Source: Pirellulaceae bacterium (lineage in GTDB: Bacteria; Planctomycetota; Planctomycetia; Pirellulales; Pirellulaceae). Taken from it: a stretch of DNA of 13,568 nt. Under the pieces are notes generated by a model that did not search any database, had not been told where the DNA came from, and saw nothing but the letters and a program-made list of their open reading frames with translations. Positions within the stretch are counted from its first letter, which is position 1. Each line of letters starts with the position of its first letter. The translations under genes were made by a program, and so were the position numbers. Where the stretch lies: the NCBI GenBank assembly GCA_047620805.1, contig JBLHLE010000060.1:1-13568 (forward strand), read 5' to 3'. Positions 1 to 13,568 of this stretch are shown piece by piece.

Positions 1-118
1 CCGAAAACTAGACGAACACTTAGAAAATCTCCGAAATTCCGCGAATCTACTTTGCACTCGGGCGAATATATCGTTAATGAGTCAATGAAAGATTCATGCT
101 CATTTCTGGAGAGTGGCA

Positions 119-733
119 ATGCAAACACTAGAACTATGTTTTTCGGGACCCATGCTCCCAGCAACAACCCTGTTGTTGTTGACGACGGCCTATTGGCTGG
201 TGGTAATACTGGGAGCGGCTGGTTTTGACGCTCTCGATTTCGACATCGATGCCGACGGCGTCGGCGATCTTGAAAATTCCCTGAGCTTAGGACTGATCGG
301 ACTAAGGTTTTTGAACCTCGGTCGCGTACCTTTGATGATTTGGCTAAGCATTTTCGCGCTGATTGCCTGGTTGGCAACAGCATTGACCTACACACCATCG
401 GACAACGAAACGCTGCTACACAATGCACTAATATTATTGCGAAGTGGCGGCATTGGAATCGTTGCCACGAAGATTTTGACTCAGCCTCTGGTAAAGATGT
501 TCGAGGGTCACGGACCGGTCAAAGGCCAGGACCTGATCGGAAAGTCGTGCGTGATAACGACTCACGAAGCCACGGACCGCGCGGGGCAAGCACGAGTAAA
601 ACATGAAGGTGGAGCTCCATTGCTCCTCAATGTTCGCTCTCAGGATGGAAAATTTGGTAAGGGTGACGAAGCCCAGATCAAGGACTTCGACGCAGTAAAG
701 AATGTTTACTTGGTCGGTAAATTCAACCTCTAA
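119..733 (+). CDS. NfeD-family membrane protein (short-form NfeD, YqiJ/YuaF-like), first gene of flotillin operon
   Basis: ORF 113..733; the preferred start is ATG at 119, with a GGAG Shine-Dalgarno at 108-111 about 7 nt upstream, and GTG at 113 is an alternative. The N-terminal half is hydrophobic with several predicted TM helices and an acidic DxDxD cluster (FDALDFDIDADGVGD). The C-terminal ~70 aa (GQDLIGKSCVITTHEATDRAGQARVKHEGGAPLLLNVRSQDGKFGKGDEAQIKDFDAVKNVYLV) has the pattern of the NfeD OB-fold domain. Its stop lies 10 nt before the start of a flotillin gene, which is the classic nfeD-SPFH operon arrangement (E. coli yqiJK, B. subtilis yuaF-floT). Confidence 0.72.
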   Translation: MQTLELCFSGPMLPATTLLLLTTAYWLVVILGAAGFDALDFDIDADGVGDLENSLSLGLIGLRFLNLGRVPLMIWLSIFALIAWLATALTYTPSDNETLLHNALILLRSGGIGIVATKILTQPLVKMFEGHGPVKGQDLIGKSCVITTHEATDRAGQARVKHEGGAPLLLNVRSQDGKFGKGDEAQIKDFDAVKNVYLVGKFNL

Positions 734-743
734 GGTGTAGACG

Positions 744-2825
744 ATGAACGGATATGTGATTTTTGGGTTAACTGCCGGCGGTCTTTTCATACTGCTTGTT
801 GGCATCCTTATAATGGTATCGAATTGGTATCGTAAGGTGGGTCCAGAAGAAGCGATTGTTCGCTCGGGTATGGGGGGACTCTCCATCGCCGTCGGCAGAG
901 GCTTGATGGTGTATCCAGTCGTTCACCGATACGAAATCATGGATCTCTCGATCAAGCGAATCGAAATTCGCCGACGAGGAGAAGAGGGGTTGATCTGCCA
1001 AGACAACATTCGCGCAGACATCGAAGTGGTGTTCTTCATAAAGGTCAATAATCGCCAAGAAGACATCCTTCAGGTGGCCGAATCGATCGGCTGCCAACGC
1101 GCCTCCGAGCAAAGCAAATTGATCGAACTGTTCGACGCCAAATTCTCCGAAGGCCTGAAGACCGTTGGTAAACGCTTCGACTTCGTAGAACTTTACAACG
1201 AACGCGATAAGTTCAAGGCCGGAATTGTGGATGTCATTGGCACCGACCTCAATGGCTACGTCCTCGACGACTGTGCGATCGACTTCCTCGAGCAGACACC
1301 ACTCGAAAAGTTGAATCCTCAGAACATCTTGGATGCTGAAGGCATCAAGAAGATTACAAACCTGACTTCACGTGAGCATATCCTCAGTAACGAGATCAAA
1401 CGCGAGAAGGAAAAAGTAATCACCAAACAAGATGTCGAAGCTCGCGAAGCGATTCTCGCACTGGAACGTCAGCAAGTGGAAGCCGAGCAAAAGCAACGTC
1501 GCGAAATCACGGAAATCACGGCTCGCGAACAAGCTCAAGGCTTGAAAGTCCAGGAAGAAGAGCGGCTCAAAGCAGAGACAGCTCGGATTCAAACGGAAGA
1601 GCATATTCGTGTTGCGGAAGAGAACAAAGATCGGCAGATCATCGTTGCCCAACGCAATAAAGAACGAACCGACCAGGTGGAGACGGAGCGCGTCGAGAAG
1701 GACAGGCAACTTGAAGCCACCGAACGCGAACGAGTCGTCTCGATTGCTCAAATCGAAAAAGACAAGGCTATCGAAATCGAGAAACGTAACATCCAAGAAG
1801 TGATTCGCGAACGAGTCGTAGTCGAACGAGCGGTCGTCGAAGAACAAGAACGGATTAAAGATACGGAAGAATTCGCAGCTGCCGATCGTTCTAAGCAGGT
1901 GAAGATTACCAAAGCTGAAGAAGAAGCTGAACAATCCTTGGTCAAGGAAGTGAAAGCAGCGGAAGCAGCGAAGCAATCTGCAGCCTTGCACGCCGAACAA
2001 GTCGTTATCGAAGCCGAAGCTCAACGGGCGTCGGCGGAGAAAGAAACGCAAGCGACCAAGATGTTGGCCGAAGCGAAAACTGCGGACGAAGCTGCCATCG
2101 GCCTGGCTCAAGCTCAGGTGCAAATCGCCAAAGCTGAATCCCTTGAAAAAGAAGGCGTCGCGGAAGCGAGTGTTATCCAGAAGAAAGCCGAAGCCTCGGC
2201 GAAGGGTAAAGAAGCCAACGCTGCTGCCATCGAAAAAGAAGGTACTGCGGAAGCAACTGTCCTGAGGCTGAAATACAGCAGCGAAGCTTCTGGTATCGAA
2301 GAGAAGGCCGAAGCGATGAAATTGTTCGACGGCGTTGGCCGCGAGCACGAAGAATTTAAGATTCGGCTCGAGAAGGACAAGGAAATCGAGATCGCCGGAA
2401 TCAAGGCACAACAAGAGATTGCCCAAGCCCAATCACACATCGTGGGCGAAGCTCTCAAGAGTGCTCGAATCGACATCGTCGGTGGCGAGACCGAGTTCTT
2501 CGATCGCATCGTCGACTCCATCAAGGGCGGCAAAGCGGTCGACCGTTTGGTCAACAGCAGCGGTGTATTGCTCGACGTGAAGAATACCTTCTTCAACGGC
2601 AACCCGGATTACTTCAAAGACAAAGTAAAGGGTCTGATCACCGAGTTCAACTTGAGCACGGATGACGTCAAAGACCTGTCGATCGCAGCCTTCGTGGCGA
2701 AGCTGATGGGCATGGCCAGTGACGATGGAACTCGCTCTGAGCTCGGAAGACTGCTCGAGTCCGTTTCCAGTGCGGGATTGGTCGGAACGACGGTATCCGC
2801 GCTCGGCCTGGGACCGAAGAAGTAA
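744..2825 (+). CDS. Flotillin-family SPFH/band-7 protein (YqiK/FloT-type) with extended coiled-coil region
   Basis: ATG at 744 has an AGGTG Shine-Dalgarno 8 nt upstream. There is an N-terminal TM helix (VIFGLTAGGLFILLVGILIMV) followed by WYRKVGPEEAIVRSGMGG. An SPFH-domain-like region (VVFFIKV, LNPQNILDAEGIKKITNLT) matches YqiK/flotillin hallmarks as I recall them. A ~300-aa E/A/K/Q/R-rich coiled coil follows, then a conserved C-terminal flotillin tail. At 693 aa it is longer than typical bacterial flotillins (about 500-550 aa). Confidence 0.85.
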   Translation: MNGYVIFGLTAGGLFILLVGILIMVSNWYRKVGPEEAIVRSGMGGLSIAVGRGLMVYPVVHRYEIMDLSIKRIEIRRRGEEGLICQDNIRADIEVVFFIKVNNRQEDILQVAESIGCQRASEQSKLIELFDAKFSEGLKTVGKRFDFVELYNERDKFKAGIVDVIGTDLNGYVLDDCAIDFLEQTPLEKLNPQNILDAEGIKKITNLTSREHILSNEIKREKEKVITKQDVEAREAILALERQQVEAEQKQRREITEITAREQAQGLKVQEEERLKAETARIQTEEHIRVAEENKDRQIIVAQRNKERTDQVETERVEKDRQLEATERERVVSIAQIEKDKAIEIEKRNIQEVIRERVVVERAVVEEQERIKDTEEFAAADRSKQVKITKAEEEAEQSLVKEVKAAEAAKQSAALHAEQVVIEAEAQRASAEKETQATKMLAEAKTADEAAIGLAQAQVQIAKAESLEKEGVAEASVIQKKAEASAKGKEANAAAIEKEGTAEATVLRLKYSSEASGIEEKAEAMKLFDGVGREHEEFKIRLEKDKEIEIAGIKAQQEIAQAQSHIVGEALKSARIDIVGGETEFFDRIVDSIKGGKAVDRLVNSSGVLLDVKNTFFNGNPDYFKDKVKGLITEFNLSTDDVKDLSIAAFVAKLMGMASDDGTRSELGRLLESVSSAGLVGTTVSALGLGPKK

Positions 2826-2849
2826 GTCCGAGGGTAGAAGAACCAAGCT

Positions 2850-2880
2850 AGGCGACTCGATCTATCCGATCGGGTCGCCT
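2850..2880 (+). terminator. Strong stem-loop 24 nt downstream of the flotillin stop; possible attenuator, partial terminator or RNA-stabilising hairpin
   Basis: AGGCGACUCGAUC (2850-2862) pairs with GAUCGGGUCGCCU (2868-2880), giving a 13-bp stem with one U-G wobble and a 5-nt loop (UAUCC). The downstream sequence (UCGCUUGAGUCUACUUUCGCUC) is only weakly U-rich, so this is not a canonical intrinsic terminator. Confidence 0.3.
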
Positions 2881-3051
2881 TCGCTTGAGTCTACTTTCGC
2901 TCACCGCACGTAGCGTGACCGTCTGGCCTCAGCGTATCTCGCTCACGCGAATAGCCGGAATCAGTCCCACTACTTGGCACAAGTTGTCCACGCCTAAACC
3001 ACCCACTCCACAATCTTGGCAAGTGACGACGTAACCGACCTGGAAGCTCGC

Positions 3052-6000
3052 ATGTCTGATGCAGAACTAGCCAACGCAACAAAAGACAACGAACAAGTTG
3101 CCTTAGAGGGTGGTACGTACGAGATCATTCGCAACCGCCTCCTCAACCAAGGCGGCGAACTGAAGACACGCCTCGAGAAGCTAAACGCGGGTCGAAAAGA
3201 AGTCTTTGGCTCGATCAACAACGCGTTACTCGGCACCGAACGGATCACCACCGACCACAATTGCGTCCCGCGCGATATGGTCGCGATCGGCAACAAGCTG
3301 ATCTTCGGATACAATGTTCACTTCGGTCTCAAGAGCGAAATAAACGTCGGCGACGTCTTCGCCGTCTACGAATTCAAAGACAAACTGTTTCATGGCCAGT
3401 CGCTGGACATGATCAATCAGGATCAGTTCGTTCGCGATTTCGGCGAAGTCTACCGATATTACAAGAATGCCGAGTTCTCGCGATTCTTCGTCCGCAAGGG
3501 ATTCCTGTACATGGTTTTCCAAGTGGGCCGCGCGGCCAACGACATCAAGTCGCTCAAATGGCTCATCGAAGGAGATTCACTACGCTACATCGATAGCCGT
3601 AGCGACCATGAAGTGAAGCCTCCGCCGCAGTACGACTTCGAGTGGATTCGGACAACCCGAGATCAACACCGCGCCGGTGACCACCCTCATATCTCCATCG
3701 CCGACCGAGTATTTGTCGAGTGCGTTGGCGGCGACCTGACGATCAAGATCGAAAACAACACCGAATCCGGCCAAGGCATTTACGCCGAAGACGTCGACAA
3801 CAAAGACCAAACGCTGGACGACGCCGAAATCTACTACGCCATCGTCGGCAACATCATACTCTTCAAGATCCGCCCTTACCAAGAAAAGCAGTTTCGCTAT
3901 ATCGTCTTTAACGAGAAGATTCAGCGGGCGATCCGTATCGACTCCATTGAGCACTCCTGCGTCCTGCTTCCCGATGACCACGGCTTGATTTTCTCCAACG
4001 GCTACTACTTACAAGACGGCGAGTACAAGACTTTTGAGAACGAACTGACGGACATGAAATTCGAGCGACGAGTTCTCGCTCAAAACGGCGAAGACTATCT
4101 CTACGTCTTCTACAACACTATTGCTGGTGTGTACGTCCAACTGCATTACAACTTGATTCAGCAAAAAGTCGACACGCCACTGATCTGTCACGGTTCGACG
4201 TTTTTCGACGGCGGCGAAATGTTGTGTTTCAAAACACACGACGAACCGCAAAAGCACCACGCCATCCAGATTTGGCAAACGCCATACGTGGGTCAAGACT
4301 ACATCCCGCACACGAATACCGACTCGTTTCTGTACAAGATCGGTAACCGCGACCTGGTCCGCGGCATGGCGGAATGCCACGAGGTCATGTCGCTGATCAA
4401 CAAGGAAGACACTTACGAGGGCCTGTACGTTGACCTCGTCCGCAAAGCGGGAGACGTGCTCGACTCGTATTTCTGGATCGGCAACCCGGAAACGCACAAC
4501 CTTGATGAGCCGCTGAAGAAAATTCGATCGACTGCAGAATCTGCGATCGAGGAGTTTGAAAAAGTTGTTCGAGTCAAGCAAAACACCGCAGGTGAAACGA
4601 AGCGAGTCGAAGATCAAACTCGCGAGATGCTGGCAGCATCGCATCATCGACGCTACGACATTATCGACGACTTCGTCACGACACTCGGCGACCTCCGCGG
4701 AGCGCGAGGGGAAGTCATTTCGCTGAAAGAACGCAAGTACGTCAACCACGCGTTACTCGAATCGCTCGAGAAAGAGGTTGCCGAGCAAAGCGAAAAAGTC
4801 GCTCAGAGATGCGTCCAATTCCTGCTCGACCCCAAAGCGCTCGGACCGTATCAAAAACGAGTTAACGAACATGTCGAGTTAATTCCACCGCTCCGAAAGG
4901 TGACGGCGGCCAAAGAACTGGAAGGGAAAATCTCCGACAGCGCCGCTGAACTTGAGATGTTGATCGACATCGTCAGCAATCTCAAGATCGACGACGCCAC
5001 CCACCGCACAACCATTATTGACAACATCTCGGTCATCTTCTCAACGATCAATCAGGCGCGAGCCGCGATCAAGACGAAGAAGAAGGATCTGATGTCGGTC
5101 GAAGGCGTCGCCGAATTCAATTCGCAAATGAAGCTGTTGAATCAAGGCGTCGTCAACTACTTAGACATCTGTGACAGTCCCGAGAAATGCGAAGAATTTC
5201 TTACCAAGGTCATGATTCAGCTCGAAGAGCTGGAAGGCCGCTTCGCAGAGTTTGACGAGTTCGTCATTCAACTGACGGACAAACGCGAAGAGATTTACAA
5301 CGCCTTTGAGACTCGAAAACTTTCGCTAATTGAAGCTCGAAATAGACGAGCGAGCTCGTTGATGTCCGCCGCCGAGCGGATTCTCAAGGGAATTAAATCT
5401 CGCGCCGATGGCATGGAGTCGGTCAACGACATCAATTCCTATTTTGCTGCGGACTTGATGATCGAGAAGATCCGCGACATTACGGGTCAATTGACGAAGT
5501 TAGACGACAACGTCAAAGTCGACGACATCCAAAGTCGCTTGAAGACGATCAAAGAAGACGCTGTACGCCAACTCAAGGACCGCCAAGACCTATTCGTCGG
5601 TGGCGCGAATATTATTCAGCTGGGGCAACATCGCTTCTCGGTCAACGTACAGCAGCTCGACCTCACGACGGTCCTCCGCGACGGCGAAATGCAGTTCCAT
5701 TTAACTGGCACTAATTTCTTCGAGAACATCGAAGACGAACTGTTGCTGTCGACCCGCCAGGTGTGGGACCAAGAAGTCATCTCGGAAACTCCGCAAGTCT
5801 ACCGCGGTGAATACTTAGCCTATCGCATCCACGAAGAGCTGGCGGGAAACACCGCCCCGTCGCTGCAAGACTTAGCCAACTTCAGCGACGAAGAGTTGTC
5901 CGCGTTCGTGCAAAGTTTTATGGGTCCACGTTACACCGAGGCCTACGTCAAGGGCGTCCACGATCAAGACGGAGCCAAGATCCTTCGTTGTCTGCTGGAA

Positions 6001-8580
6001 ATGAAATTCAGTATCGGCCTGTTGCGTTACCATTCAATCGCGCGATCGTTGGCTCGAGCCTATTGGAATAACTTCTGCGGCGGTGAACAGAAGGAACTGA
6101 TGTCGGCGAAGCTGCGAGGGTTCGGCACGATAAGTCAATTGTTCCCCGACTCGTCCGCGCAAATGGAATACGTCAAGCAGCTTCGCGGCATGATGAAAGA
6201 CTTCATCAACTGGTCCGGACTCTACGACGCCGAGTGGGTGCCGCCAGCTGCAGAGTATCTGTTCTACGAATTATCGGGGGGCGCGGGCTTTGCAACCAGC
6301 CGGATCGCGACCGACCTCTTCGACGAATTCCACACATTCCTACGCAGCAACACTTATGAAGAAAAATTCTCGCAAACAATGAAAGATGTCGCCGAAGATT
6401 CAGTGAGCAGCGTCCAATTGGCGCGAGATTGGATGTCGGCTTTCGTGGCGAACCGCCCCGACGCCAACGAAACTCAGGACTACATTGACGAAGCCGCCGT
6501 GTTATTGGTAGACGGAAAAGTGAATCGCGAACTGGTCGTCGATGGCCAAGTGCGACGCCAGCTGGATAGCATGATCGGTGCTCATGGAGTCATTCAGCAA
6601 CACAAGTATCACGTCAATTTCAACCAGTTCTTTGAAAAGCTGAATAAGTACGAACGAGAAATCGTGCCGCTATATCGGACATACATTGAACGCAAAAAGG
6701 AGATCGTCGACCATCAGCGCGAAGGCATGAAGCTCGACGAATTCAAACCTCGCGTGCTGACCTCGTTTGTCCGCAACAAGTTGATCGACGAAGTTTACCT
6801 GCCCATTATTGGCGACAATCTTGCCAAGCAAATCGGCGTGATAGGCGAAGGCAAACGCACCGACCTGATGGGATTACTGCTGCTGTTGTCGCCTCCCGGT
6901 TACGGTAAAACGACGTTAATGGAGTACATCGCCAACAGGCTTGGCGTGATCTTCATGAAGATCAATGGTCCGGCGATCGGCCATAACGTCACCTCCTTAG
7001 ACCCCAACGAAGCGCCCAACGCGGGCGCTCGCGAAGAGGTCGAGAAACTGAACTTGTCGCTGGAAATGGGCGACAATGTGATGATCTATCTCGACGATAT
7101 CCAACACTGCAATCCCGAGTTCTTACAGAAGTTCATCTCGCTTTGCGACGGGCAGCGAAAGATCGAAGGCGTCTACAAGGGTCGCACGCGAACCTACGAT
7201 CTACGCGGTCGCAAGGTGATCGTCGTCATGGCGGGCAACCCCTATACCGAAAGCGGCGAAAAGTTCCAGATCCCCGACATGCTCGCTAACCGGGCAGACG
7301 TATACAACTTGGGCGAGATCATCGGCGAAACCGCTCGAGCGTTCGAGATGAGTTACTTGGAAAACTGCCTGACTTCAAGCGCCGCACTGAATCGACTTGC
7401 GAGTCGCAGTCAGCAAGACGTCTACTCGATTATCAAAATCGCTGAGACCGACGACCGCGAGGGAATCGAGCTGGAAGGTTCGTACTCGTTGGAAGATGTT
7501 AGCGAAATGGTAACAGTGATGAAGAAACTGATGTACGTTCGGGATATCATCTTGAAGGTAAATCGCGAGTACATTCGTTCTGCCGCCCAATCCGACGACT
7601 ATCGAACCGAGCCACCGTTCAAACTGCAAGGTTCATACCGAAACATGAACCGTATCGCAGAGAAAGTCGTTCCAATCATGAACGACGAAGAGCTGCGCAC
7701 GCTCATCTTGTCGAACTACGAGAACGATTCTCAAACTCTGACGTCCGACAACGAAGCCAACATGCTGAAATTCAAAGAGCTAATGGAAATCCTCAACGAA
7801 GAGGAAGCTCTACGATGGGCCTCGATCAAACGAACATTCTCTCAGAATTTGAAAATGAGAGGCATCGATGCGGATGACTCGACCGGCCAAGTTATCTTAC
7901 AACTGCGCGAGTTCAACGACGGGCTCGAATCGATCCGACACGCGTTGAGCGATGGGGTGGCGAAAATCGCCTTTAATCGCCGCGAGCCAGAAGTGAAGCA
8001 GGCAGATCCAAGTCCACAGTTAGAAGAGCTAGTCGCCAACATCGGCAGTTTGCGAGATGGGCTGCACGGCATTCGAGAAGCGTTATCCGGCGGTATTTCG
8101 GAAGAGGCTTTCAAAGATCTTGCGGCTCAACTAAAAGAAATCGCTACGATTGCGCCAGCCCCAGCACTGCCTACAGCGAGCGACGGGCCTGTCGAAGCGC
8201 AGCTGGTGAACCCCGGCGGCGGACTCGACGACTTAACGCCACTCGCATCATCTAGTGCACCGTCGGCCAAAGAGTTAGACAAACTCATTGAAAGAAAGAT
8301 CACCGTACAGCACAAAGTTCCCCGCACGATCCTCAATGTTCTCAAGTCGCAATTTGAGCTGATGCACAACTGGATGGTGCCCATCTTCCACGCTCAGAAA
8401 GAGCAAGGTAAAGACTTCGGCAAATTGCAAAACTCGATGAACCTATGCTTAGACAACTACGAGTCGCTATTAAAAGAGCTCGAGTCCGCTGGCATTCGCA
8501 AGATCCCCAAGAAAAAGCGGGGGGACAAAACGGCGGACGAAACGCCCGAAACGACTCATTTCATCGACGACAATGAGTAG
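3052..8580 (+). CDS. Giant (~1840 aa) uncharacterised protein with a single MoxR/AAA_5-like AAA+ ATPase module; third gene of the NfeD-flotillin cluster
   Basis: A continuous ORF of 1854 codons begins at TTG 3016. The preferred start is ATG 3052, with a GGAAG Shine-Dalgarno 6 nt upstream. Walker A is LLLLLSPPGYGKTTL (nt 6898-6924). Walker B with the flanking AAA_3/AAA_5-type motif is MIYLDDIQHCNPEFLQKFISLCD, comparable to hhDEINRAxPxvQsaLLe. Sensor-1 is VIVVMAGNP. The first ~1250 aa have no motif I can assign; they are mixed beta-rich and coiled-coil. The C-terminal ~450 aa contain a duplicated ~40-aa motif, a Pro/Ala-rich linker and a basic tail (KIPKKKRGDK). Codon usage is uniform with the flanking genes. 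Confidence 0.8.
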   Translation: MSDAELANATKDNEQVALEGGTYEIIRNRLLNQGGELKTRLEKLNAGRKEVFGSINNALLGTERITTDHNCVPRDMVAIGNKLIFGYNVHFGLKSEINVGDVFAVYEFKDKLFHGQSLDMINQDQFVRDFGEVYRYYKNAEFSRFFVRKGFLYMVFQVGRAANDIKSLKWLIEGDSLRYIDSRSDHEVKPPPQYDFEWIRTTRDQHRAGDHPHISIADRVFVECVGGDLTIKIENNTESGQGIYAEDVDNKDQTLDDAEIYYAIVGNIILFKIRPYQEKQFRYIVFNEKIQRAIRIDSIEHSCVLLPDDHGLIFSNGYYLQDGEYKTFENELTDMKFERRVLAQNGEDYLYVFYNTIAGVYVQLHYNLIQQKVDTPLICHGSTFFDGGEMLCFKTHDEPQKHHAIQIWQTPYVGQDYIPHTNTDSFLYKIGNRDLVRGMAECHEVMSLINKEDTYEGLYVDLVRKAGDVLDSYFWIGNPETHNLDEPLKKIRSTAESAIEEFEKVVRVKQNTAGETKRVEDQTREMLAASHHRRYDIIDDFVTTLGDLRGARGEVISLKERKYVNHALLESLEKEVAEQSEKVAQRCVQFLLDPKALGPYQKRVNEHVELIPPLRKVTAAKELEGKISDSAAELEMLIDIVSNLKIDDATHRTTIIDNISVIFSTINQARAAIKTKKKDLMSVEGVAEFNSQMKLLNQGVVNYLDICDSPEKCEEFLTKVMIQLEELEGRFAEFDEFVIQLTDKREEIYNAFETRKLSLIEARNRRASSLMSAAERILKGIKSRADGMESVNDINSYFAADLMIEKIRDITGQLTKLDDNVKVDDIQSRLKTIKEDAVRQLKDRQDLFVGGANIIQLGQHRFSVNVQQLDLTTVLRDGEMQFHLTGTNFFENIEDELLLSTRQVWDQEVISETPQVYRGEYLAYRIHEELAGNTAPSLQDLANFSDEELSAFVQSFMGPRYTEAYVKGVHDQDGAKILRCLLEMKFSIGLLRYHSIARSLARAYWNNFCGGEQKELMSAKLRGFGTISQLFPDSSAQMEYVKQLRGMMKDFINWSGLYDAEWVPPAAEYLFYELSGGAGFATSRIATDLFDEFHTFLRSNTYEEKFSQTMKDVAEDSVSSVQLARDWMSAFVANRPDANETQDYIDEAAVLLVDGKVNRELVVDGQVRRQLDSMIGAHGVIQQHKYHVNFNQFFEKLNKYEREIVPLYRTYIERKKEIVDHQREGMKLDEFKPRVLTSFVRNKLIDEVYLPIIGDNLAKQIGVIGEGKRTDLMGLLLLLSPPGYGKTTLMEYIANRLGVIFMKINGPAIGHNVTSLDPNEAPNAGAREEVEKLNLSLEMGDNVMIYLDDIQHCNPEFLQKFISLCDGQRKIEGVYKGRTRTYDLRGRKVIVVMAGNPYTESGEKFQIPDMLANRADVYNLGEIIGETARAFEMSYLENCLTSSAALNRLASRSQQDVYSIIKIAETDDREGIELEGSYSLEDVSEMVTVMKKLMYVRDIILKVNREYIRSAAQSDDYRTEPPFKLQGSYRNMNRIAEKVVPIMNDEELRTLILSNYENDSQTLTSDNEANMLKFKELMEILNEEEALRWASIKRTFSQNLKMRGIDADDSTGQVILQLREFNDGLESIRHALSDGVAKIAFNRREPEVKQADPSPQLEELVANIGSLRDGLHGIREALSGGISEEAFKDLAAQLKEIATIAPAPALPTASDGPVEAQLVNPGGGLDDLTPLASSSAPSAKELDKLIERKITVQHKVPRTILNVLKSQFELMHNWMVPIFHAQKEQGKDFGKLQNSMNLCLDNYESLLKELESAGIRKIPKKKRGDKTADETPETTHFIDDNE
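6840..7330 (+). other. AAA+ (MoxR/AAA_5-like) ATPase module inside the giant ORF
   Basis: In linear order there is a P-loop GYGKTT, Walker B hhhhDD followed by IQHCNPEFLQKF, Sensor-1 asparagine in MAGNP, and then a helical lid region (ADVYNLGEIIGETARAFEMSYLEN). It is a single module, not a tandem hexamer-of-dimers arrangement. Confidence 0.7.
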
Positions 8581-8596: not shown

Positions 8597-8675
8597 CAGA
8601 GCGTCCGGGAAGATCAGAGCGTCCGGGAAGATCAGAGCGTCCGGGAAGATCAGAGCGTCCGGGAAGATCAGAGCG
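8597..8675. repeat. Tandem direct repeat, 18-bp unit CAGAGCGTCCGGGAAGAT x4 perfect copies plus a partial 5th
   Basis: Read directly from the sequence: perfect copies at 8597-8614, 8615-8632, 8633-8650 and 8651-8668, then CAGAGCG and divergence. It starts 17 nt after the stop codon of the giant ORF, in the convergent intergenic region 8581-8710. Confidence 0.92.
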
Positions 8676-8704
8676 GTCAGAGCTGCCTACACATTGCTCT
8701 GACC
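8675..8704. terminator. Intergenic stem-loop (9-bp perfect stem, 12-nt loop) between convergent genes; candidate bidirectional terminator-like structure
   Basis: GGTCAGAGC (8675-8683) and GCTCTGACC (8696-8704) are perfect reverse complements. The structure sits 7 nt from the stop of the minus-strand SGNH gene (8711-8713) and about 95 nt after the giant-ORF stop. No canonical U-tract follows on either strand. Confidence 0.3.
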
Positions 8705-8710
8705 TTGATG

Positions 8711-10901
8711 CTACTGAGTGAGCGTTTCGGCTAGTTCGTTGGCAATCAGATCCGCGATTAGTTCATTTCCTTTTTGGTTCGGATGAACGCCATCGCCAGT
8801 CAAAATACCCATGTTCGCGAATTCGATGTCGCCGTTAACTCTCAATTCAACATTGTGATTCTTCAAATAGTTAACGAACGCAGTGCGAAGATCGACGAGT
8901 GGTACGCTCTGTTGGCGAGCCACCTTGCGGGTTAACTCGGCGAACTGATCGCAGAGTTTGTCTTTTTCGTTGGAGCCATCGGGGCGCTCTCTGTAAACGG
9001 CGAGCGTCGTGAAGATTAGTTTCGTTCCGTTGGCGGCTGCAGCTTTGTGCAGGTCGACTAGTGCCTGTTCAAAGTCTTGCGGACTTGTCTTTCGCCACCA
9101 AACATCGTTGATACCGATGTACACCACGGCCACATCTGCCTTGTCGTTCTGGATAACCTTGGCGAACGATTCTTGTTTGCCATCCTTGTTGCCATCCTTG
9201 TTTGCCATCCTTGTTGCCATCCTTGTTGCCATCCTTGTTGCCATCCTTGTTGCCGGAGTCGATGTAGGCGGCCTTTTCGACTCCATCGCGAACTGAGAGC
9301 ACGCCGCCGCCGTTGATTCCGTGGTTGAGTAGCTTCACATCCTTGGCCGTCGTTGGCAGCGCCTTTTCAATTAGCGAAATAAATCCGTTTTGCCAAGTGA
9401 TCGAATCCCCAAAGAACGAGATTCGTTTTCCGTCGGGGATCTTCGCGGAGGTGAGTTTGGCGCGGCCTGCGATGTTAAATGAGAGCGACCGTTTCTGCTT
9501 GGCAGAATCCGACATATCGAAAGGCGAATCAAGCGGCTCGACGACATTCATTGCGGGTTTTAGATTGCCATCTTGGTCAATCGAGGCGCGATAGACTCCT
9601 GGTTTTCTGCCCTTTGGGTTGCGAAACCCAATTGTCTGCAATTGCGACGGCGTAAGACCGCCGGTGTCGCTTCCAAAACGAACGGTAGAAGCCGCCGCAT
9701 CGAAGCCGTTGATGATTAACTGCTTACTTGAGTCCCAGTTTGCGCCGCTACTGTCGTAAAAACGAATTCTACCGGCCTGTGTAACATCGATACTCGCGTC
9801 GCCATTCAGAAACAGAATGCCAAGATTTTCGCTGTGCCCTTTTAGCCGTAGTTCGACGGACTGCGACTTGGGATCGACAACGACATTTACGGCGTCGGCG
9901 ATCTGGTTGTCGTTTTCCCACTCCAACTTCGCGTGTGTCGTCAGAGTTAATTCACTGGAAATGGCATCGACCCCTGTGGGCTTTGCGAGCGACGTGACAT
10001 TCAGCCGCGGATTTCCCGAACCAATCATCCAGCCAGCCGCAAGCGAATTTGCTTGCCCACCGCCGAGTGTCGTGCCTCCGTTGGTGATGTTTATCCGCCC
10101 TGCCCCGACGATGTCTCCGTGGAGCCTCGTTGGATTCCCTCCGCCGTTATCGACCTGCAACGTCACGCCATCATCGATCTGAAGTCGTCCAGTGTGGGGA
10201 CCGTTGGATATTCCACTGGTAATTACGGAATCTTTGCTGACCGTAATCGGCTCCGTCGACGTATTGCGAATGATGAAGATCTGGCCACCGTCCAAAATGG
10301 TGGGCTGCGAGTCGGAACCAAAACTTCCAGGCGAATGAGTTAGCAGACGGCCCGAACGAATTATCAGCTTGCCAAGCAGTGTTTTCGAGCTATCCGCCGC
10401 AAAGTCGATTGTGCCCGTTTTGTGACCGTCGAAAGTGAGTGTACCGGAGCCGTGAATCTTTCCCGAGATGACGAGCGATTCACCGCCGAGATAGAAGTGA
10501 TTGTGATTGGCCAATGTCGCGTCGCCAAGAAACTCAACGTCGCAGGCAAGCGTCTGCTTGGCCTGCTCCTTAAAGCCGACGGAGTCCATCTTCTTTAACA
10601 CGACGGAGCCATCTTTTTCAATGACTAGCGGGCCGCCGCTAAGCGTGTAACGCCTCTTGTCAGTGGGGTTGAGAAGCAGGTGCGCGATCTGTTGGCGTCC
10701 CACCATCTCGATCGTGGTATCGCTACCAACGGCGGGAAGAATCGCAGAATCGCCGCTGCCCGGAATCTGTTTTGGATTCCAGTTCGCAGCATTTGCCCAC
10801 TGCTCATCGTCGGCTTTTCCAGTCCATGTTATTTCTGCAGCTTGTGTTCCGCTACAAAACAAAACGAAAACGGCGAGCGATAAGAAGAAGCGTGGCAGCA
10901 T
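8711..10901 (-). pseudogene. Secreted SGNH/GDSL-family hydrolase with N-terminal autotransporter-associated beta-strand (beta-helix) repeats, interrupted by a 1-nt frameshift in a coding tandem repeat (or a sequencing error)
   Basis: Two overlapping minus-strand ORFs (9069..10973 and 8711..9286) together encode one protein. The upstream ORF has a signal peptide from ATG 10901 (MLPRFFLSLAVFVLFCSGTQAA|AE), then ITWTGKADDEQWANAANWNP-type passenger-associated repeats, then SGNH block I (FFGDSIT) and block II (NHGINGGG). The downstream ORF supplies block III (YIGINDVWW) and block V (DGVHPN). The two frames switch inside the (NKDG)n repeat, where one repeat unit is 13 nt instead of 12 (extra T at about 9201-9203 on the plus strand). 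The total length of 2191 nt is 3n+1, consistent with a single inserted base. Confidence 0.6.
9179..9251. repeat. Coding tandem repeat, 12-bp unit GCCATCCTTGTT x6 (encodes NKDG on the minus strand), with one 13-bp variant unit causing the frameshift
   Basis: Units at 9179-9190, 9191-9203 (13 bp, extra T), 9204-9215, 9216-9227, 9228-9239 and 9240-9251. Minus-strand translation gives NKDG NKDG NKDG NKDG, then a shift to KQGWQQGWQ. The other frame gives MATRMATR, then NKDGNKDGKQESF leading into the rest of the SGNH domain. Confidence 0.9.
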
Positions 10902-11033: not shown

Positions 11034-11070
11034 AAAAAAAGCCCGCAGTTGTGAAACTGCGGGCTTATCT
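11034..11070 (-). terminator. Rho-independent terminator of clpX
   Basis: On the minus strand, GCCCGCAG (complement of 11057-11064), an 8-nt loop, and CUGCGGGC are followed by UUUUUUU (complement of the A-run 11034-11040). This starts about 20 nt after the clpX stop (11086-11088). Confidence 0.75.
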
Positions 11071-11085
11071 CAATCCAGTCAATGT

Positions 11086-12378
11086 CTAGGCACTTTTTGA
11101 CTTCGGTTCGGGGAACTCAAAAAGCTTGTTACGACCAGATATCACATCTTCGTCGATACGATACGTCTCGCCTTCCTCTTGGTCTGGCAGTTCGTACATG
11201 ATATCCAACATGGCTTCTTCGATGATGCTACGGAGGCCACGAGCACCAGTGCCCTTCTTGAGAGCTAGGTGAGCGATTGCCTGCAGGGCACCTTCGGTGA
11301 ATTCAAGGTGGCTGTTTTCCATCTCGAACAACGTCTCGTACTGCTTTATCAAAGCGTTCTTTGGCTCTGTGAGAACTTTAATGAGTCCTGATTCGTCCAA
11401 CGGCGTTAGTGCTGTGCAAACGGGTAGTCGACCCACGAGTTCGGGGATCAAACCGTATTCCAGGATGTCGTCGGTGCGAAGTTGTGGCAGCAATTCAGCG
11501 AGATCGGCGTCTGCCGCTAGCCCAGTTGCTTCTTGCTGTTGCCCGAAACCCAACGTTCGCGTGCCGAGGCGTTTGCGAATGATGTCTTCAATACCAACAA
11601 ATGTACCACCACAGATAAAGAGAATGTTCGTCGTGTCCATCTGAATGTAATGTTGTTCGGGATGCTTACGGCCACCTTGCGGTGGAACATTAGCAACAGT
11701 TCCTTCCAACATCTTCAACAAAGCTTGTTGAACACCTTCACCGGAGACGTCGCGAGTGATCGACACGTTCTGACTGGTCTTTCCAATCTTGTCGATCTCA
11801 TCGATATAGAGAACGCCGCGTTGAGCAGCTTCTAGATCGAAGTCCGCAGAATGCAACAGCTTGAGTAACAAATTTTCGACGTCTTCGCCGACATAACCTG
11901 CTTCCGTCAAGGTTGTCGCATCACCGATGGCAAAAGGAACATTCAGCACACGTGCCAAAGTTCTTGCCAACAACGTTTTTCCGGATCCTGTTGGGCCGAC
12001 AAGAAGAATATTCGACTTCTCGACTTCAACATTTGAACCTTCCCATCCCAAAGAGAGCCGCTTGTAATGGTTGTGAACCGCCACGGCGAGTACCTTTTTG
12101 GCACTGCCTTGACCGATCACATATTGGTCCATTTGGTTAACTATACTGCGAGGAGTAGGAATCTCACTGAACAACTGCTTCGAGGATCCTCGACGTTTTT
12201 GCTCTTGTTCCAAAATCGACTGGCAAAGGTCGATACACTCGCCACAAATATAAACATCGCCGGGGCCCTCAACTAAAGGTCCCACATCGCGATAACTTTT
12301 TCTACAGAAGGAACAGAAGGCGTTCTTTTTAGTAGTACCGCCTCGTCGTCCCCCCCCCACTTCTTTTCCAGCGGGCAT
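11086..12378 (-). CDS. clpX: ATP-dependent Clp protease ATP-binding subunit ClpX
   Basis: The N-terminal C4 zinc-binding domain (CSFCRKS...[10 protein letters not shown]) is followed by the canonical ClpX AAA+ core ([45 protein letters not shown], Walker [23 protein letters not shown], and a C-terminal [10 protein letters not shown] sensor-2 region). Length is 430 aa. Confidence 0.95.
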
Positions 12379-12642
12379 GCTTGCTCCTTTCGGATTTCCG
12401 ATTCCCCCGTCCAGTCGGCCATCGTCGGCCGCTAAACAAAGTCGTCTAGAAACAATCCCAGGTGTCGCTCGTGCAGACCGTTACATCAGGCCTGCGGGGT
12501 GCATCCTTGACCGCTATCGTCGAGCTTTAAAATCATTCTTTCCAAGAAGTGCTTTTGGCCTCCCAGGCCATCGAAGAAAATAACTCGAAGGGATCGTCAG
12601 AACCGGACACATCATGAACGCTTATCCATGCCGCTCTTCCGG

Positions 12643-12987
12643 TTAACCCTCTTCATTGTCATCGTTTAACTCGGTCTTGAGTTTTTCTCCCAGCACTGTC
12701 TTTATTGTTCGGTATTCAGAGTCCTCAATGTCACCTTCCTCAAGCATTTCGTGGAAATTGGTCATCGTGTCACTAACGCTTGGCCGGTCGTCATTGATTT
12801 GATCGCGATAGCTTATCGCGATGCGGTATCCAACCGAGATCATTGCACAAAGTATAGCGATCCCAAGCACAAGTTGGGCTTCCGTAGTTTGTAGGAATTG
12901 GGAAAATGACACGGGCGTTTCGACTAGTGAGCGTTTATTCGGTTGACCACAGGAAGCGATGTCAAAAGCGAAGTGCAATCGTGACAT
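12643..12987 (-). CDS. Small membrane protein with C-terminal SHOCT-like domain (start uncertain; the longest ORF extends to 13179)
   Basis: ORF 12643..13179. An internal ATG at 12987 (MSRLHF...), preceded by a GGGAGA-like Shine-Dalgarno, gives a ~114-aa protein with one TM helix (LVLGIAILCAMISVGY) and a C-terminal LEEGDIEDSEYRTIKTVLGEKL segment that matches the SHOCT motif pattern (L..G.It.eEY...K..L). No other homology was recognised. Confidence 0.45.
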   Translation of the reverse strand: MSRLHFAFDIASCGQPNKRSLVETPVSFSQFLQTTEAQLVLGIAILCAMISVGYRIAISYRDQINDDRPSVSDTMTNFHEMLEEGDIEDSEYRTIKTVLGEKLKTELNDDNEEG

Positions 12988-13400
12988 ATTGCCTGATACA
13001 TATCTCCCGGATATTATGCAAAAAGTGCTCACTAAGTCCAGAATCCGTAATCCGTATTCCTTAACTCGTGCTGGCCGTTGGCTTTGCGTTTGGTAAGTGA
13101 ATGGAATACAAAGATCGGACACATGGGGCTTCCGCTCAGTCTGATCACGCAGACTGTCGGGATTCGCCACAGTTGACACTCTAGCAATGCCGCGCTAGGC
13201 TGATGCAGCACCGGCCTAATTTCGGCCCCTAGCGAGCGAAGTTAGCCAGATTTGGCGAACTTAATGGAGTTTGCCAGCCATGCTGGGCAACCTCACTTAA
13301 CTCACAGGCCATTTCCCTGAAGAAGATACGAAGTCCGTTTCGTATAGCGTTCATTGCTCAGATCTAGTTACGTCCCTGCCTCCCCAATGGTTCAGAGAAT

Positions 13401-13568
13401 ATGCAAGATAAACAATCGCAACTCAATCGCGTCATTAGTGGCGGTATCGTGGCCGTCATTCGAGCCGATCGCAGCGAAAGGCTGGTCGATGTTGCCCAGG
13501 CTCTCCTCCAGGGTGGCATCGATGTAATGGAAATCACCTTCACTGTTCCTCGAGCTGTCCATGTTCTG
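13401..13568 (+). CDS. eda: KDPG/KHG aldolase (Eda), 5' fragment truncated by window end
   Basis: MQDKQSQLNRVISGGIVAVIRADRSERLVDVAQALLQGGIDVMEITFTVPRAVHVL aligns with the Eda N-terminus ([41 protein letters not shown] in E. coli Eda). An in-frame TAG lies 36 nt upstream, so ATG 13401 is the first possible start. Confidence 0.72.
   Translation, partial: MQDKQSQLNRVISGGIVAVIRADRSERLVDVAQALLQGGIDVMEITFTVPRAVHVL

Follow-up and report, generated by a model that had tools for sequence, protein, structure and literature searches.

Bacterial slippage hotspots and contingency loci carry repeated units such as CTGG (three copies) in E. coli lacI, CTCTT in Neisseria opa and CAAT in Haemophilus lic1, and most contingency loci have been described in host-adapted pathogens. 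Frameshifts that arise by strand slippage in coding repeats form a long-known class (PMC11868660, PMC3315296), and coding variable-number tandem repeats (VNTRs) are described for M. tuberculosis (PMC12817950). A frameshift within a coding repeat was analysed here in contig JBLHLE010000060.1 (assembly GCA_047620805.1) of an uncultured Pirellulaceae bacterium. The whole contig of 13 568 nt is referred to below as the window. The gene concerned (8711–10901, minus strand) is predicted to encode a secreted SGNH/GDSL esterase with a signal peptide, an N-terminal beta-rich region and a C-terminal SGNH domain. It is interrupted by an exact 25-nt tandem duplication in an array of NKDG codons. These 25 nt were probably duplicated when a 12-nt unit slipped against a 13-nt terminal quasi-unit during replication, which left a recent null allele (probability about 0.68). 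This is an ordinary strain-level knockout and involves no new mechanism.

As in contingency loci, the coding repeat gained a copy whose length is not a multiple of three, and the resulting OFF allele is revertible in principle. Unlike in these loci, the slipping unit is an unequal composite of 12 + 13 nt, there is no long homogeneous tract and the NKDG tract is not conserved in orthologues. The locus resembles coding VNTRs of secreted and surface proteins in its perfect DNA units, in the short peptide motif placed in a surface loop and in a copy number that varies between strains. It differs from VNTRs that adjust loop length, since the variation is out of frame and the protein is inactivated. 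A preliminary description of this DNA had presented the repeat as a likely VNTR that would change loop length; the repeat does vary between strains, but the variation seen is a loss of frame. The one mildly unusual aspect is that the imperfect terminal unit of a minisatellite that normally preserves the frame caused a frameshift.

The array was delimited using Tandem Repeats Finder (TRF). This coding minisatellite spans 9172–9254 (minus strand) and is built of 12-nt units, GGCAACAAGGAT (G-N-K-D) on the coding strand and CTTGTTGCCATC on the plus strand. TRF gave a period of 12 (6.8 copies, 95% matches, score 148) and, for the same stretch, a period of 25 (3.2 copies, 96% matches). The four 5′ units of the array are identical at the DNA level and are followed by units of 13, 12 and 13 nt, which form the duplication. 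A single 13-nt unit had been reported in the preliminary description. Two exist (CTTGTTTGCCATC on the plus strand), at 9172–9184 and 9197–9209, both inside the duplication. The unit at 9172–9184 is native sequence and codes for G-K-Q-E after the repeat. Copy 1 of the duplication (9172–9196, minus strand) and copy 2 (9197–9221, minus strand) are identical; the identity extends to 9227 and includes the 12-nt unit lying between both 13-nt units. The register is arbitrary over seven positions, the 25-mers being identical at offsets 9172–9178. This anatomy was observed directly, and the string GGCAAACAAGGATGGCAAC would mark the window allele. Since 25 = 24 + 1, the frame shifts after Gln568. Two repairs restore a single frame: removal of one T from the TTT at 9201–9203 gives a 729-aa protein with (NKDG)6, and removal of one 25-nt copy gives a 721-aa protein with (NKDG)4. 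A terminator-like match at 9160–9182 (plus strand) was also considered and rejected: it is antisense to the gene, and the number of such matches is within the expectation from shuffled sequence.

An intact sister allele was found via its identical ClpX neighbour. It is carried by contig Ga0535667_0026343 (6678 nt) of Joint Genome Institute (JGI) metagenome 3300054976, where a single-frame gene (3431–5596) of 721 aa encoding (NKDG)4-GKQES adjoins clpX. Its protein is the one obtained by deleting one 25-nt copy from the window gene, save for one Pro/Ala difference. This difference (residue 659) is uninformative: in an alignment of 121 sequences the family consensus is Thr and both states are rare. 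The window and the sister contig were aligned over 5976 nt and are 99.95% identical, with three single-nucleotide polymorphisms (SNPs) and two indels, each of which falls in a tandem repeat: one of 25 nt in the NKDG array and one of 36 nt (2 × 18) in an intergenic repeat. SNPs at 8902 and 9903 flank the array. The 25-nt gap was placed at 9203–9227 by BLAST, a register equivalent to copy 2 as given above, and the copy missing from the sister allele is the frameshifting lesion. Within the esterase gene, the two contigs show one non-synonymous and one synonymous difference. Compared with the sister allele, no degeneration beyond the 25-nt lesion was found in the form of extra stops, indels or lost catalytic residues. 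The open reading frame (ORF) of the window is disrupted relative to intact orthologues, as in a null allele. Because the rest of the gene is undamaged and an intact gene is present in a 99.95%-identical strain, the allele appears to be very recent. Judged from its sequence, the lesion would be either very recent or not real.

A second contig (L098, from sample 3300053785) was compared with positions 1–7251 of the window. The two are 99.97% identical, with two mismatches and no gaps. Over the ~13.2 kb of comparison with the sister contig and L098, no single-base indel was present, which argues against a noisy assembly and against a homopolymer error. The latter had been among the explanations offered in the preliminary description and is disfavoured. 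In sample 3300053785, L098 and a further contig (L097) end on either side of the esterase gene. No further allele of the lineage was detected: the 95 loci recovered by intact-protein scans of metagenome and genome contigs reached at most about 59% identity in the esterase domain. Exact-product look-ups returned no record for the 610-aa and 191-aa ORFs of the window, several alternative starts, the 1842-aa neighbour or the 721-aa sister protein, nor did they turn up the frameshift allele in any independent record.

The split was then located relative to the catalytic blocks. Two overlapping minus-strand ORFs join within the array, one running from 10973 to 9069 (with a sensible ATG at 10901) and the other from 9286 to 8711. 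From this ATG, the upstream ORF (9069–10901, minus strand) codes for 610 aa, of which residues 1–568 are native; 42 out-of-frame residues and a stop (9069–9071) follow. Its translation begins with MLPRFFLSLAVFVLFCSGTQAAE, a signal-peptide-like N-terminus. A Sec signal peptide, MLPRFFLSLAVFVLFCSGTQAA followed by E, was predicted by eye at 10833–10901 (minus strand) from a hydrophobic core and then an A-x-A-like site. In the upstream product, FFGDSIT is block I and NHGINGGG is block II; SGNKDGNKDGNKDGNKDGKQ and the 42 nonsense residues come after them. The translated downstream frame (8711–9171, minus strand) contains NKDGNKDGKQESFAKVIQNDKADVAVVYIGINDV and then DGVHPN before its stop, YIGINDV being block III and DGVHPN block V. 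All codons lie on the minus strand. In the upstream ORF, Ser500 of block I is at 9402–9404 and Asn530/Gly531 of block II are at 9309–9314. In the downstream frame, block III supplies Asn590 (9107–9109) and Asp591 (9104–9106), and block V supplies Asp695 (8792–8794) and His698 (8783–8785).

Ser500, Gly531, Asn590 and Asp591 are invariant in the 121 aligned family members, and the columns of Asn530 (120/121), Asp695 (118/121) and His698 (119/121) are nearly so. The catalytic residues of all blocks are undamaged in both alleles. In the window allele, Ser500 and Gly531 are carried by the 610-aa secreted fragment, and Asn590, Asp695 and His698 sit in a frame without a signal peptide. The repaired protein was searched against Pfam and gave one PF13472 match (59.8 bits, cut-off 32.9) over residues 496–714, bridging the junction. 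PF00657 was likewise above threshold over the junction (51.4 bits, cut-off 23.6). Since the SGNH profile match bridges the frameshift, neither ORF alone contains the whole domain. Blocks III and V are on one polypeptide with block I in the sister allele and are severed from it in the window allele, a loss observed directly. The 610-aa product lacks the block III Asn and the block V Asp and His, so it should be catalytically dead, and the enzyme of the window allele should be inactive. The preliminary description was borne out here: it had recognized one SGNH domain divided by a frameshift within the NKDG repeat, blocks I and II in the upstream ORF, blocks III and V in the downstream frame, and a truncated product without the catalytic His.

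The origin of the repeat was traced by homology searches. With the full repaired protein, one weak match was obtained; with the array collapsed to one unit, 183 matches were obtained. Repeat words probably swamped the candidate list in the first search. The 183 proteins (E ≤ 1e-10, at most 48% identity) bear the names GDSL-type esterase/lipase or lysophospholipase L1-like esterase; one of them is from Pirellula staleyi DSM 6068. The 95 further loci come from metagenomes and metagenome-assembled genomes of Planctomycetota, Verrucomicrobiota and Armatimonadota. The stretch running from block II (motif G-x-N-G-G) to block III (motif G-x-N-D) measures 47–52 aa in 118 homologues of these three phyla, versus 64 aa in the sister allele, and none of the 118 has more than one N-x-[DN]-G unit in it. 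In the nearest subfamily, the site of the array holds a single unit, for instance AAYIDRKNKNGKQASF in P0011 and TNKDGRQ in P0013. Twelve extra NKDG residues are restricted to the lineage of the window and the sister contig in the 121-sequence alignment. Given the length of this segment in homologues and their single unit at most, the NKDG expansion is lineage-specific, as was directly observed. Orthologues lacking the repeat had been named beforehand as the sign of such an insertion, and the comparison agreed with it. The tract is not kept in the orthologues examined, the nearest available relatives being at most 48% identical, so that the comparison is made above the genus level. Since the four 12-nt units are identical in DNA, the in-frame expansion is itself recent.

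Replication slippage would account for these features as follows. An ancestral N-K-D-G turn between blocks II and III would have been amplified in frame to four identical 12-nt units, the array terminating in a 13-nt quasi-unit, GGCAAACAAG(A), that would code for G-K-Q-E. In the window strain, the replication machinery would have slipped out of register, a 12-nt unit pairing against the 13-nt quasi-unit, and 25 nt would have been copied twice. The resulting 610-aa product would retain the signal peptide, the beta-rich N-terminal region and blocks I and II. Two perfect 25-nt copies are present in the OFF allele, and if the same slippage removed one of them, the gene would be restored exactly. 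Slippage had been set aside in the preliminary description on the ground that 12-nt units keep the frame. That objection falls, the slipping unit being the composite of 12 + 13 = 25 nt, which breaks it. Slippage thus appears to be the best explanation of the origin of the allele, and reversion would be mechanistically possible. We infer that the allele is present in cells and not just in the assembly.

Several points weigh against this scenario. The frameshift allele comes from one 13.6-kb metagenome contig. The 140-aa downstream fragment is on record from the window contig only. Only two alleles were found, on one contig each. An expansion from (NKDG)4 to (NKDG)6 followed by a 1-nt insertion yields the identical sequence. 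Finally, the null status of the 610-aa allele is deduced from its sequence.

The first of these points bears on an assembly or sequencing artefact, in which the true gene would be an intact (NKDG)4 allele and the additional 25 nt would come from a misassembled repeat, from slippage during library polymerase chain reaction or from a chimeric consensus. We regard it as unlikely, although it is the most probable of the alternatives. The lesion lies within a tandem repeat, a classic site of assembly errors, and the allele is present on one contig only. The lineage is also fragmented in another sample, where L097 and L098 end beside the gene, which indicates strain mixtures. However, the array is only 83 nt long and would fall below the length of ordinary short reads and of the largest common k-mers. 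Junction k-mers of the window allele (e.g. GGCAAACAAGG) are missing from the sister allele; in the window allele, 4 of the 11-mers and 26 of the 33-mers are new relative to this intact allele. The intact sequence matches itself at a distance of 25 nt over only 6 nt, and its perfect 12-nt periodicity runs over 53 nt. A repeat-cycle error in a k-mer graph of this periodicity would add multiples of 12 nt, not 25. The remainder of the contig agrees with two independent contigs without any single-base indel.

A selected contingency locus, in which the 25-nt composite unit would toggle the esterase between ON and OFF states at high frequency, a form of bet-hedging for a secreted enzyme (phase variation), is considered distinctly improbable. 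ON (sister) and OFF (window) alleles do occur in strains that are three SNPs apart over 6 kb. A change in copy number of a coding repeat shifts the frame, the 25-nt unit being present once in the sister allele and twice in the window, and the two perfect copies of the OFF allele could lose one via slippage. A second repeat nearby varies as well, and slippage in repeats is the usual way in which phase variation arises (PMC11868660, PMC3315296). Nevertheless, a single event suffices for the data. None of the 118 homologues examined contains the repeat, and a conserved switch is therefore lacking; the tract itself is short, and the frame is preserved by its principal unit of 12 nt. The ON and OFF alleles are known from one contig each and not within one population. 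If true, such a switch would extend contingency-locus behaviour to free-living Pirellulaceae, with a frame-keeping coding minisatellite acting as a frame switch and an 18-nt intergenic repeat varying in parallel.

According to the preliminary description, the true allele was (NKDG)6 with one extra A/T at 9201–9203, due to a homopolymer error or a point insertion. Removal of one base does yield the 729-aa ORF, as was claimed, and a change of AA to AAA is a plausible small indel. As an account of the lesion it is very improbable, because two events are then needed relative to (NKDG)4, the sole intact allele seen, and one 25-nt duplication is a single event. The inserted base must also recreate by chance the native terminal quasi-unit in unit 5 of 6, with a perfect 25-nt periodicity as the outcome. 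Homopolymer indels are otherwise absent in ~13 kb of comparison, and no allele with (NKDG)6 turned up. A recoding event such as programmed +1 ribosomal frameshifting, by which overlapping ORFs jointly encoding one domain would give the full-length enzyme from two frames, was rejected as having a negligible probability: the two-frame arrangement is not conserved, the sister gene and all homologues being single ORFs, the shift coincides with a fresh duplication, and no conserved slippery site is possible in a sequence absent from relatives.

The likely function of the protein was approached by structural comparison. The N-terminal 549 aa gave no Pfam or NCBIfam match. The sequence matched Protein Data Bank (PDB) entry 7DDY (1.2e-14). 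An AlphaFold model of the homologue P0011 (predicted local distance difference test, pLDDT, 92.8; predicted template modelling score, pTM, 0.84) is beta-rich in its N-terminal half, and its C-terminal part has an alpha/beta SGNH fold. The segment after block II is modelled as a confident beta-hairpin (strands 379–383 and 392–394), and the single KNKNG unit of P0011 is located in the turn between both strands. By this model, the NKDG repeat would lengthen the tip of the hairpin. Foldseek was run with the P0011 model; the best solved match was 7DDY, the acetyl-xylan esterase AlAXEase (template modelling score 0.86 on the target, 28% identity), followed by Axe2 and other GDSL carbohydrate esterases. 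From sequence and model, the gene is thus predicted to code for a secreted SGNH/GDSL esterase, the nearest relatives of solved structure being acetyl-xylan esterases. With the frame repaired, it has the four catalytic blocks in common with SGNH carbohydrate acetyl-esterases such as AlAXEase (7DDY) and Geobacillus Axe2 (3W7V). Unlike these, it has an N-terminal beta-rich extension of ~490 aa without a Pfam match and, according to the P0011 model, a family-specific beta-hairpin between blocks II and III. It also differs from its SGNH relatives in the 12 extra NKDG-repeat residues at the hairpin tip, which are found in this lineage only, and in the division of the domain over two frames in the window allele. 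Within the SGNH/GDSL superfamily the protein is an ordinary one, with an unusual loop repeat that is specific to its lineage.

In the public record, ClpX is MFT5522797 and positions 8711–9133 (minus strand) are annotated as a stand-alone 140-aa 'lysophospholipase L1-like esterase' (MFT5522795.1) with a GTG start at 9133. Judging by the accession numbers, a further coding sequence would fit in before ClpX, presumably the upstream part of the gene. The record thus does not flag the split gene as a pseudogene; its halves, apparently entered as separate proteins, are fragments of one broken gene. The value of the observation is mostly practical. Homopolymer polishing does not apply to a lesion that consists of a 25-nt duplication. 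The locus shows, as a clean case from nature, how the imperfect terminal unit of an in-frame coding minisatellite can bring about a frameshift. Wider interest would arise only if both alleles switch within one population.

The second VNTR is a perfect 18-nt tandem repeat detected by TRF at 8597–8675 (CAGAGCGTCCGGGAAGAT), outside the esterase gene and between two convergent genes. It has 4.4 copies in the window versus 2.4 in the sister contig (5632–5674). It is followed by a 9-bp hairpin (GGTCAGAGC/GCTCTGACC, 8675–8704) whose left arm resembles the repeat unit. Both VNTRs can serve as strain-typing markers for this Pirellulaceae lineage. On the other side of the esterase gene, a strong intrinsic-terminator-like hairpin (11039–11066, minus strand; 12 bp with 7 G-C pairs, then a T run) lies directly after clpX, which suggests that the esterase gene is transcribed alone.

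Positions 119–8580 (plus strand) contain an apparent three-gene operon. It comprises a 204-aa NfeD/YqiJ-like membrane protein (weak PF21001 match, E 0.0016, 19 bits versus a cut-off of 23), and a 693-aa protein named flotillin by NCBI (MFT5522793). The remaining product, of 1842 aa, matches DUF3686 ('ATPase involved in DNA repair', E 1.6e-190) and also has DUF7902 and an AAA domain. A hypothetical protein of 114 aa (12643–12987, minus strand) gave weak SHOCT-like and GvpG-like matches. L097 is only 95% identical to positions 11424–13568 of the window, yet this 114-aa protein is identical in both. Two related lineages seem to coexist in sample 3300053785. A 16-nt tandem repeat (TCCCGATGATACTGCC) is present in 4.2 copies both in the sister contig (170–237) and in L097 (3465–3532), and L097 also carries perfect arrays of 15 nt (3.5 copies) and 12 nt (2.7 copies). 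Short perfect tandem repeats seem to be common in this genome.

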